11,400 nt of DNA, from UHGV virus genome UHGV-1549577, one strand, 5' to 3'. Under the pieces are notes generated by a model. That model was not told the origin of the DNA and did not search any database. It saw only the letters and a list, made by a program, of their open reading frames with translations. Position 1 is the first letter of the stretch. Every line of letters begins with the position of its first letter. This stretch comes from a virus. Positions 9,446-10,125 of the stretch are shown here, in pieces. The position numbers and the translations under genes are program-made.

Positions 9446-9820
9446 ATGGCAAAAGATCTGAAAACGCTGGCGCTGGCCAGACTGTCAGGGTTTCGTCATA
9501 AAACGGTGAAGGTGCCGGAATGGGGTAATGTCAGCGTGGTGCTGCGGGAGCCTTCGGCAGAGGCCTGGTATCTGTGGCAGGAAGTGCTCAATGGTGATGG
9601 AGAGGATGACGATACCCTGTCGGTGGTGGCGAAAACCCGCCGTAACCTGGAAGCGGATGTGACGCTGTTCTGCGATGTCCTGTGTGATACGGATCTGCAG
9701 CGGGTGTTCACTCCGGACGACCGTGAGCAGGTGCTGGCCGTCTATGGTCCGGTACATGCCCGGTTGCTGCGTCAGGCACTGGAACTGATCGCTGATGCAG
9801 AGTCGGCCAGAAAAAAGTAG
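9446..9820 (+). CDS. Tail assembly chaperone (lambda gpG analogue)
   Basis: 124-aa ORF between the major tail and tape measure genes. It ends at TAG immediately after the heptamer A_AAA_AAG. Confidence 0.7.
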   Translation: MAKDLKTLALARLSGFRHKTVKVPEWGNVSVVLREPSAEAWYLWQEVLNGDGEDDDTLSVVAKTRRNLEADVTLFCDVLCDTDLQRVFTPDDREQVLAVYGPVHARLLRQALELIADAESARKK

Positions 9821-10125
9821 CCCGCCCGGAAATTCGCTTTCTGATGCGACTTGCGCTCCGTCTGGGGCGCACCTTATCCGAACTGCAGCACAGCCTGAGT
9901 GCGAGCGAGGCGATGATGTGGATGGAGTTCGACAGGGTATCCCCGCTGGGTGATGAGCGCGGGGATATCCGTAATGCACAGATCGTGAAAGCGGTTTTTG
10001 GGGCACAGGGGATGAATGTTGCACTGAAGGACGCCATGCTCTGCTGGGGCGAGGATGAGGACAAGCCGGAGGTGGATCCGTTTGCGGCGCTGGAAGACGC
10101 GCTGAGCTTTGCAGCACAGTCATGA
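9446..10125 (+). CDS. Frameshift-extended tail assembly chaperone (lambda gpGT analogue), joined by a -1 shift at 9811-9817
   Basis: A -1 shift at the slippery heptamer joins the chaperone ORF to the downstream frame that contains the annotated 9844-10125 ORF, giving a product of about 226 aa. This is the conserved arrangement of tail chaperone genes upstream of tape measure genes. Confidence 0.6.
9811..9817 (+). promoter_or_regulatory. Programmed -1 ribosomal frameshift slippery site A_AAA_AAG
   Basis: The heptamer is in the correct register: the zero-frame codons are AAA (9812-9814) and AAG (9815-9817), then TAG. The -1 frame is open from 9796 and continues to 10125. Confidence 0.65.

Follow-up and report, generated by a model that had tools for sequence, protein, structure and literature searches.

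The G/GT frameshift of tail assembly chaperones is a classic of phage recoding, and -1 frameshifting of this type was reportedly described by Levin in 1993 and by Xu, Hendrix and Duda in 2004. In phage lambda, protein G coats the tape measure protein, and GT recruits the major tail protein through its T domain. The two products occur in a ratio of ~30:1; tail assembly requires both of them at a set ratio, and neither G nor GT is present in the virion (PMC5009743). We compared this system with a tail gene locus in a stretch of 11,400 nucleotides of virus genome UHGV-1549577 (called the window in the following), which resembles the lambda system in gene position and in the predicted mechanism, as well as in a low-efficiency shift that would fix the ratio of G to GT. 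The T segments of both belong to Pfam family PF06223, and this domain starts 27-28 residues past the slip site in either case (residues 29-104 in lambda T, counted from its slip site). BLASTP comparisons of the G and T of the window with lambda G and T returned no similarity, and the link between the two systems runs via the Pfam profile of T only: lambda G belongs to family PF06894, whereas the G of the window belongs to PF06222. The two systems also differ in the slippery heptamer, which is G_GGA_AAG in lambda, and in the ratio of the products, which is ~30:1 in lambda and roughly 13:1 at this locus, as implied by a published frameshift rate of 7% (see below).

Much closer to the window is the prophage Sp9 of the E. 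coli O157:H7 strain Sakai, whose genes ECs1801 and ECs1802 represent effectively the same locus, with an identical junction and an equal gene order. The G proteins share 99.2% of their amino acids (ECs_1801 in Sp9), the T sequences are 97.7% identical at the nucleotide level, and the overall nucleotide identity is ~95%, with few substitutions elsewhere. The two loci differ in the portal gene, which is split in the window (G5) and fused in Sp9 (G6). The next system for comparison is the pair gp13/gp14 of phage HK97, which belongs to the same Pfam families and occupies the same slot between the genes for the major tail and tape measure proteins (63% identity for G and 58% for T). HK97 also exhibits the -1 relation of the two frames and a slip site at the same aligned residue as the window. 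However, its slip site reads CGG GAA AAG (G_GAA_AAG) in place of A_AAA_AAG, the stop codon of its G gene lies five codons downstream of the slip, whereas that of the window adjoins it, and there is an extra moron gene (gp15) ahead of its tape measure gene. Finally, the dnaX gene of E. coli, coding for gamma and tau, contains the identical heptamer A_AAA_AAG, which is read by the single tRNA-Lys of E. coli. The dnaX signal contains an upstream Shine-Dalgarno (SD)-like stimulator and a downstream stem-loop, neither of which is present at this locus, and it leads to a shift of ~50% with a shorter product, compared to ~7% with a longer product here.

Gene neighbourhood of the tail assembly chaperone

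The window represents the late (structural) part of a lambdoid prophage of E. coli that resembles Sakai Sp9. It is 98-99% identical to Stx-converting phages, and the region was found in 1,246 of 5,426 complete E. coli genomes. The genes follow each other in the order of small and large terminase, a protease-capsid fusion, portal, connector proteins, tail completion, major tail, G, T, and tape measure. The gene preceding G (8724-9440, + strand) codes for the major tail tube protein, as indicated by matches to the Pfam families Phage_TTP_11, Phage_tail_2, and Ig_2, the product containing an Ig-like domain at its C-terminus; its relatives in RefSeq and GenBank are labelled 'major tail subunit'. 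On the other side, the 5' part of the tape measure gene (10173-11400, + strand) was identified by a match to PF20155 (TMP_3; E = 7.6e-56) and by relatives which are also annotated as tape measure proteins; the gene continues beyond the window. The G/GT position is defined by exactly these flanks, a major tail gene on the 5' side and a tape measure gene on the 3' side.

The G protein matched PF06222 (Phage_TAC_1) over positions 1-124 of 124 with an E-value of 1.7e-61. It also matched phrog_344 and, with an E-value of 3.7e-46, the PDB entry 2ob9 ('Tail assembly chaperone'), which we take to be the chaperone gp13 of HK97. By these sequence matches, G is classed as a homologue of HK97 gp13. Residues 28-98 of the T extension matched positions 1-71 of 73 of PF06223 (Phage_tail_T, 'minor tail protein T'; E = 6.2e-19), and a search for either G or T in NCBIfam returned no match. 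Both segments were covered by a single profile of 224 positions, phrog_14766, with G matching positions 1-122 and T positions 125-224. Because this profile spans G and T, joined G-T products must have been deposited for relatives.

A separate observation concerns the portal gene. The portal ORF of the window (4930-6294) ends in AGG GGG ATA CTG AAA AAA TGA and is followed in the -1 frame by an ORF of 299 amino acids (6291-7190), which matched the C-terminal portion of a PHROG profile for 'portal protein' with 859 positions. Sakai Sp9 and phage 2851 contain six G residues where the window has five (6275-6279), and have one fused portal ORF. Among loci from IMG/VR, the G5 form was represented by 76 loci in at least nine junction haplotypes, and the gene was split in all 76 of them; the G6 form was found at 41 loci, and the ORF read on in each of the 30 that were long enough to judge. 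The motif GGGGGA represents a good SD sequence 10 nt before the ATG at 6291. The difference may stem from mutation or phase variation, or else reflect translational coupling or a further recoding event; a literature search on this G5/G6 polymorphism returned nothing relevant.

Slip site, reading frames and conservation

The G gene (9446-9820, + strand) codes for 124 amino acids and ends in GCC AGA AAA AAG TAG. The slippery heptamer A_AAA_AAG is located at positions 9811-9817 of the + strand, with AAA (9812-9814) and AAG (9815-9817) representing zero-frame codons and the final two sense codons of G, and the stop codon UAG (9818-9820, + strand) follows immediately 3' of it. The sequence-only reading had placed the heptamer in this register before the stop codon and had described a -1 frame open from 9796 through the ORF at 9844-10125, and both statements were confirmed on the sequence. 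The -1 frame opens at 9796, after a TGA at 9793-9795, passes the ATG at 9844-9846 (+ strand), which is the RefSeq start of 'tail assembly protein T', and reaches its stop codon TGA at 10123-10125. Calculated from the start positions, (T start - G start) mod 3 equals 2. The T segment of GT (9817-10125, + strand) consists of 102 codons of the -1 frame, yielding a predicted fusion protein of 226 amino acids (124 + 102) with the junction ...ARKK/VARPEIRFLM.... Its first nine residues form a linker, VARPEIRFL (9817-9843, + strand), which lies 5' of the annotated T start and would be translated only after a shift. A long ORF on the antisense strand (9485-10255) showed no match to a PHROG family and was rejected as spurious.

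Because 9796-9820 on the + strand, between the TGA of the -1 frame and the end of G, is the sole stretch in which both frames are open, any joining of G and T by a -1 shift is confined to it, and it contains no slippery motif other than the heptamer. We also analyzed how common such motifs are in the window. The sequence AAAAAAG occurs six times on both strands together, compared to 1.34 expected copies, and only one of 200 shuffled sequences reached this number. Four copies are located on the + strand, and the one at 9811-9817 is the only one in register with its own ORF. The 13 genes of the + strand contain 12 in-register motifs of the X_XXY_YYZ type, but a -1 ORF of more than 49 codons is opened only at 9811-9817, where it extends over 102 codons and contains the Pfam domain. 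Since this heptamer stands alone among the in-register motifs in opening a long -1 ORF, the combination of register, position and downstream domain is specific.

The conservation of the slip site was analyzed for a set of 92 loci, consisting of the window, annotated phages, and 80 contigs from IMG/VR. At 91 of these loci, T follows G in the -1 frame, and a slip motif ending in A_AAG is present at the equal aligned place; at the single exception (L086), the A run is shortened by one A. The complete heptamer A_AAA_AAG was found at 86 loci, and those with another motif contain G_GGA_AAG, G_GAA_AAG or A_GCA_AAG at an unchanged aligned position. For example, G_GAA_AAG is present in HK97-type phages and in Cronobacter phage ENT39118, G_GGA_AAG in phage Fraca, and A_GCA_AAG_TAA in Klebsiella phage Kp4885-3, while more distant T homologues follow G_GGA_AAC (Pseudomonas phage PARCL1pr) or A_AAA_AAC (Moraxella phage Mcat19). 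The invariant core of the slip motif, as read from the aligned sequences of the family, is A_AAG only.

Further evidence comes from the immediate surroundings of this core. The codon 5' of AAA AAG is AGA, AAA, GGA, GCA or GAA, coding for five different amino acids, and its third base is always A. Because the codon always ends in A despite the five amino acids, the constraint operates at the nucleotide level. In an E. coli clade of 68% identity, the -1 frame opens right at the heptamer, 7 nt ahead of the G stop codon; the overlap of the frames is equally short in the Klebsiella phage, and in both a shift is therefore possible nowhere else. Together with the constraint on the linker (see below), the A-ending codon and the 7-nt overlaps argue for selection acting on the slip site itself.

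Mechanism and alternative readings

Frameshifting at this sequence is not new and has been quantified before. Antonov et al. (2013) reported 7% +/- 0.79 of -1 frameshifting for a 75-nt cassette named 'Phage_TAC' in a GST-MBP reporter in E. coli (PMC3711429, Table S2), and this cassette is 100% identical to positions 9791-9865 of the window. In the same study, the cassette of a relative with the motif G_GGA_AAG yielded 6% (PMC3711429). In addition, Sharma et al. (2014) marked the tail assembly chaperone ECs1801 (cluster A_AAA_AAG_25) as a true case (PMC4066793, Tables S4, S8). We found no report on detection of the native GT of this prophage by mass spectrometry. The locus shares the gene position, the -1 frame relation, the in-register heptamer and a T without its own ribosome binding site with the G/GT class. 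We are therefore highly confident that it represents the programmed -1 ribosomal frameshift of the G/GT type in an HK97-type chaperone, located in an E. coli lambdoid prophage like Sakai Sp9. The sequence-only reading had likewise proposed a G/GT-type frameshift upstream of the tape measure gene, which agrees with the gene identities, their order, the frames, the conservation and the published reporter data on the identical sequence.

In the proposed mechanism, most ribosomes would read 9446-9817 and terminate at the UAG at 9818-9820, resulting in G with 124 amino acids. A minority, ~7% in the reporter, would back up by one base on A_AAA_AAG, with tRNA-Lys moving its pairing from AAG to AAA, and the tRNA at AAA pairing with AAA again. 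After the slip, GUA (9817-9819) would be the next codon, and translation would continue through 10122 to yield GT with 226 amino acids and the sequence ...ARKK-VARPEIRFLM... across the junction. Judging by the lambda system, whose G falls into another Pfam family (PF06894), the G protein would coat the tape measure protein and the T domain of GT would recruit the major tail protein. By the same homology, a fixed ratio of G to GT would presumably matter for tail assembly.

A dedicated stimulator would be unnecessary for this shift, and neither an SD-like element nor a positioned structure was identified. A stimulated signal of the dnaX or IS type is defined by an SD-like element 6-17 nt upstream of the heptamer and a stable, conserved hairpin or pseudoknot starting 4-10 nt downstream, and the locus shows neither of the two. 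No SD-like motif (GAGG, GGAG, AGGA, GGNGG, AGGKG) occurs in the 30 nt upstream of the heptamer. The sequence-only reading had considered a stimulatory RNA structure within 9818-9900, but the fold of this segment does not differ from those of shuffled sequences (z = -0.32), nor are the folds of 9818-9860 (z = +0.33) and 9823-9952 (z = -1.60) significant. A consensus fold of 11 relatives had an energy of -3.6 kcal/mol and showed essentially no covariation (term of 0.08), and the sole hairpin common to them (9852-9869) is located 34 nt downstream, within the conserved codons for LALRLGR. These results agree with those of Sharma et al. (2014) for the same cluster, who reported no SD and a ddG per nt of 0.020 +/- 0.023 (PMC4066793). 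The UAG next to the slip codon may add a pause; it is not a defining feature.

This stop codon is central to an alternative route, in which a single tRNA-Lys slips from AAG to AAA in the P site while a slowly decoded UAG occupies the A site, leading to an identical product. The stop codon adjoins the slip motif in four lineages, namely the clade of the window, the 68%-identity clade, Proteus phage Pm34, and Klebsiella phage Kp4885-3. The latter offers only A_GCA_AAG_TAA within a 7-nt overlap of the two frames, and because GCA is unable to re-pair in the P site, only A_AAG beside the stop codon can work there. However, the stop does not adjoin the motif in HK97 and the Burkholderia phages, where it lies 5-12 codons downstream of the slip codon. 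Moreover, the A which always precedes AAA AAG would be relevant only if the upstream tRNA re-pairs, and tetramers slip at far lower efficiency than heptamers in E. coli (PMC4066793). We therefore consider a slip of the P-site tRNA alone as unlikely for the window, though far from negligible, and prefer tandem slippage on the heptamer.

The tandem slip would account for the production of T as part of GT, while database records call for an independent T starting at the ATG at 9844. Such a free protein of 93 amino acids would arise by reinitiation 23 nt past the UAG and either replace the fusion or accompany it. The ATG at 9844 lacks an SD sequence as assessed by anti-SD duplex energy: its value of -3.5 kcal/mol is no stronger than that of a random ATG (median of -3.8 kcal/mol over 222 ATG triplets scanned), whereas 12 of the 13 other starts showed values of -5.3 to -12.8 kcal/mol. 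Although a separate T CDS is present in RefSeq for >1,200 genomes, the start calls in the database records conflict with each other, giving proteins of 93, 92 or 69 amino acids, the last of which is labelled 'DUF4035'. Furthermore, the nine codons of the -1 frame that separate the heptamer from the ATG are constrained at the protein level: Pro128 of the linker is invariant in nine relatives of 39-66% identity although it is encoded by CCG, CCC, CCT or CCA, and 9 of 10 third codon positions in the linker are variable alignment columns, compared to 6 and 5 for the first and second positions. An independent T would also leave the nucleotide-level conservation of the heptamer unexplained, and the identical cassette does yield a fusion at 7%.

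The residue Met134 itself provides evidence in both directions. It is invariant in nine HK97-like relatives and also found in a Pseudomonas phage, but it is replaced by Phe in the T of the Moraxella phage and by Leu in lambda T. The G stop codon of HK97-like relatives is located 0-25 nt upstream of the ATG of T or overlaps with it, as in Bcep176 and phiE125, where the sequences ATGA and TGATG represent a classic layout for translational coupling. Natural in-frame GT fusions were also searched for among the T homologues, but all proteins obtained were short (56-127 amino acids). Because Met134 is invariant in these relatives and the G stop is close or overlapping, some free T may be produced at a low level by termination-reinitiation. 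Nevertheless, a free T from the ATG at 9844, whether instead of the fusion or next to it, appears rather improbable, and we give similarly little credence to a reading with three products, G, GT and a free 93-amino acid T reinitiated at this ATG after the UAG at 9818-9820; if true, the latter would explain both the invariance of Met134 and the position of the G stop. The ATG at 9844 most likely codes for an internal Met of GT. The view of the sequence-only reading that the 93-amino acid ORF is expressed as a frameshift extension is thus well supported by the missing SD, the constrained linker and the relatives without Met, if short of proof.

GT may also be produced from an altered mRNA, if RNA polymerase adds one A in the run of six A residues at 9811-9816 and thereby brings G and T in frame, leaving the protein unchanged. 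Poly-A runs are known to allow transcriptional realignment, and the GST-MBP reporter does not distinguish between slippage of the ribosome and of RNA polymerase on the A run (PMC3711429). The run is also unstable, as indicated by A8 in a sister clade and A7 at one locus. However, six A residues are below the lengths reported for efficient transcriptional slippage, which are runs of more than seven (PMC3711429). The family members with G_GGA_AAG, G_GAA_AAG or A_GCA_AAG keep the same arrangement without any homopolymer, and the cassette with G_GGA_AAG still showed 6% frameshifting. In addition, the final G of the motif is conserved (AAG, and never AAA AAA), which fits slippage of tRNA-Lys as in dnaX. 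Transcriptional slippage is therefore very improbable as the main source of GT, and ribosomal slippage on the heptamer is the reading we retain. A merely coincidental presence of the heptamer and the two ORFs, with T as a decaying remnant without a role in frameshifting, might be suggested by the over-representation of AAAAAAG in the window, but is refuted already by the comparative and published experimental data, given an arrangement kept from E. coli to phages of Burkholderia, Pseudomonas and Moraxella, an intact Pfam domain of T, and frameshifting measured on the identical sequence.

Annotation and meaning

RefSeq lists the 'tail assembly chaperone' and the 'tail assembly protein T' as two CDSs without a slippage join. 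The same two-gene annotation is used by RefSeq/PGAP and most GenBank phage records, affecting the complete E. coli genomes that contain this allele (>1,200) and ~2,000 with the wider family. Some GenBank entries represent the fusion: the HK97 pair is described as 'translated due to a -1 frameshift', and that of Bcep176 is given as a joined CDS. The exact GT protein of 226 amino acids is absent among ~15 billion proteins, indicating that nobody has deposited it as a product.

The locus adds little new biology, as frameshifting of the same sequence was already quantified (7%) and two genome-wide surveys count it among the true cases. In practical terms, it is of use for annotation, since a ribosomal-slippage join would correct the records for G and T. 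The comparison across the family provides a clear example of nucleotide-level constraint at a slip site.

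Variants of the slip site in relatives

The heptamer A_AAA_AAG (9811–9817), which lies directly before the stop codon of the tail assembly chaperone gene G, varies among the relatives in the 92-locus comparison. The sister clade of E. coli loci with 68% identity (L005 and L074–L092) carries a run of eight A residues, reading GTT AAA AAA AAG TAG, and the start of its open −1 frame coincides exactly with the heptamer. One locus of this series, L086, has a run of seven A residues and a broken frame relation between G and its −1-frame extension T, which shows either an instability of the run or else an assembly error. 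The slip site of the Klebsiella phage Kp4885-3 (L009, 981–990) reads only A_GCA_AAG_TAA, and the stretch in which both frames are open is as short as 7 nt. Because the P-site codon is unable to re-pair and the overlap is limited to these 7 nt, a shift in this phage must depend on the A_AAG tetramer adjoining the stop codon. This combination is a minimal version of the slip signal.

Annotation of T and the antisense frame

The database entries for T (9844–10125 in the window) disagree in both start and name. One lists it as a "tail assembly protein T" of 93 aa, a second as a "DUF4035 domain-containing protein" of 69 aa with 644 member sequences, and a third as a "putative minor tail protein" of 70 aa, while one cluster containing T is named "preprotein translocase subunit SecA". 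The exact sequence of the frameshift fusion protein GT was absent from a collection of approximately 15 billion proteins. On the minus strand, an ORF of 256 aa (9485–10255) covers both G and T; a search for a matching PHROG family gave no result for it, and the ORF is most likely a by-product of the codon bias of the coding strand rather than a gene.

Structural genes and terminator-like sites

A hairpin at 10131–10156, GAGAACCGC-UGAG-GCGGUUUUU (−10.8 kcal/mol), is placed between the stop of T (10125) and the start of the tape measure gene (10173) and overlaps a run of seven U residues (10148–10154). It looks like an intrinsic terminator or attenuator immediately 5' of the tape measure gene and was not called by a consensus scan. 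In the record of the related phage HK97, a putative terminator is annotated at the corresponding position. Another sequence resembling a terminator (8687–8701) is located 5' of the major tail protein gene (8724–9440), again as in HK97. The major tail protein itself carries a C-terminal Ig-like domain (residues ~151–233, with matches to Ig_2, Ig_3 and I-set), which is encoded in frame. Further upstream, the domains of a prohead protease (Peptidase_S78, residues 48–153) and the major capsid protein (Phage_capsid, residues 386–635) are combined in a single ORF of 645 aa (2781–4718), which precedes the portal gene in an unusual gene order.

The split portal gene

The portal gene of the window consists of two ORFs, the first of which (4930–6294, plus strand, PF04860) ends in a TGA overlapping the ATG of the second (6291–7190, 299 aa), which is in the −1 frame relative to it and matches the C-terminal third of the 859-position "portal protein" PHROG profile. 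The junction region (6271–6294) contains a run of five G residues (G5, 6275–6279), whereas Sakai Sp9 and phage 2851 have six (G6) and one fused portal ORF of 2580 nt. Among the IMG/VR loci, the G5 form occurs in 76, representing at least nine haplotypes and split in every case, and the G6 form in 41, with the ORF continuing through in all 30 that could be judged; an identical flanking haplotype was found with both forms. The second ORF also differs in length across Stx-phage relatives, and because its tblastn matches span 861, 1023 or 1185 nt, this suggests a gain or loss of modules of ~162 nt. The copy in the window showed no tandem repeat, and a CBM_5_12 match in this ORF was weak and under the Pfam cut-off. 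The PGAP annotation treats the G5 portal as a pseudogene and describes it as "frameshifted". Slippage by −1 on G_GGG would restore the fused protein, and GGGGGA is predicted to be a good SD sequence for the second ORF as well.
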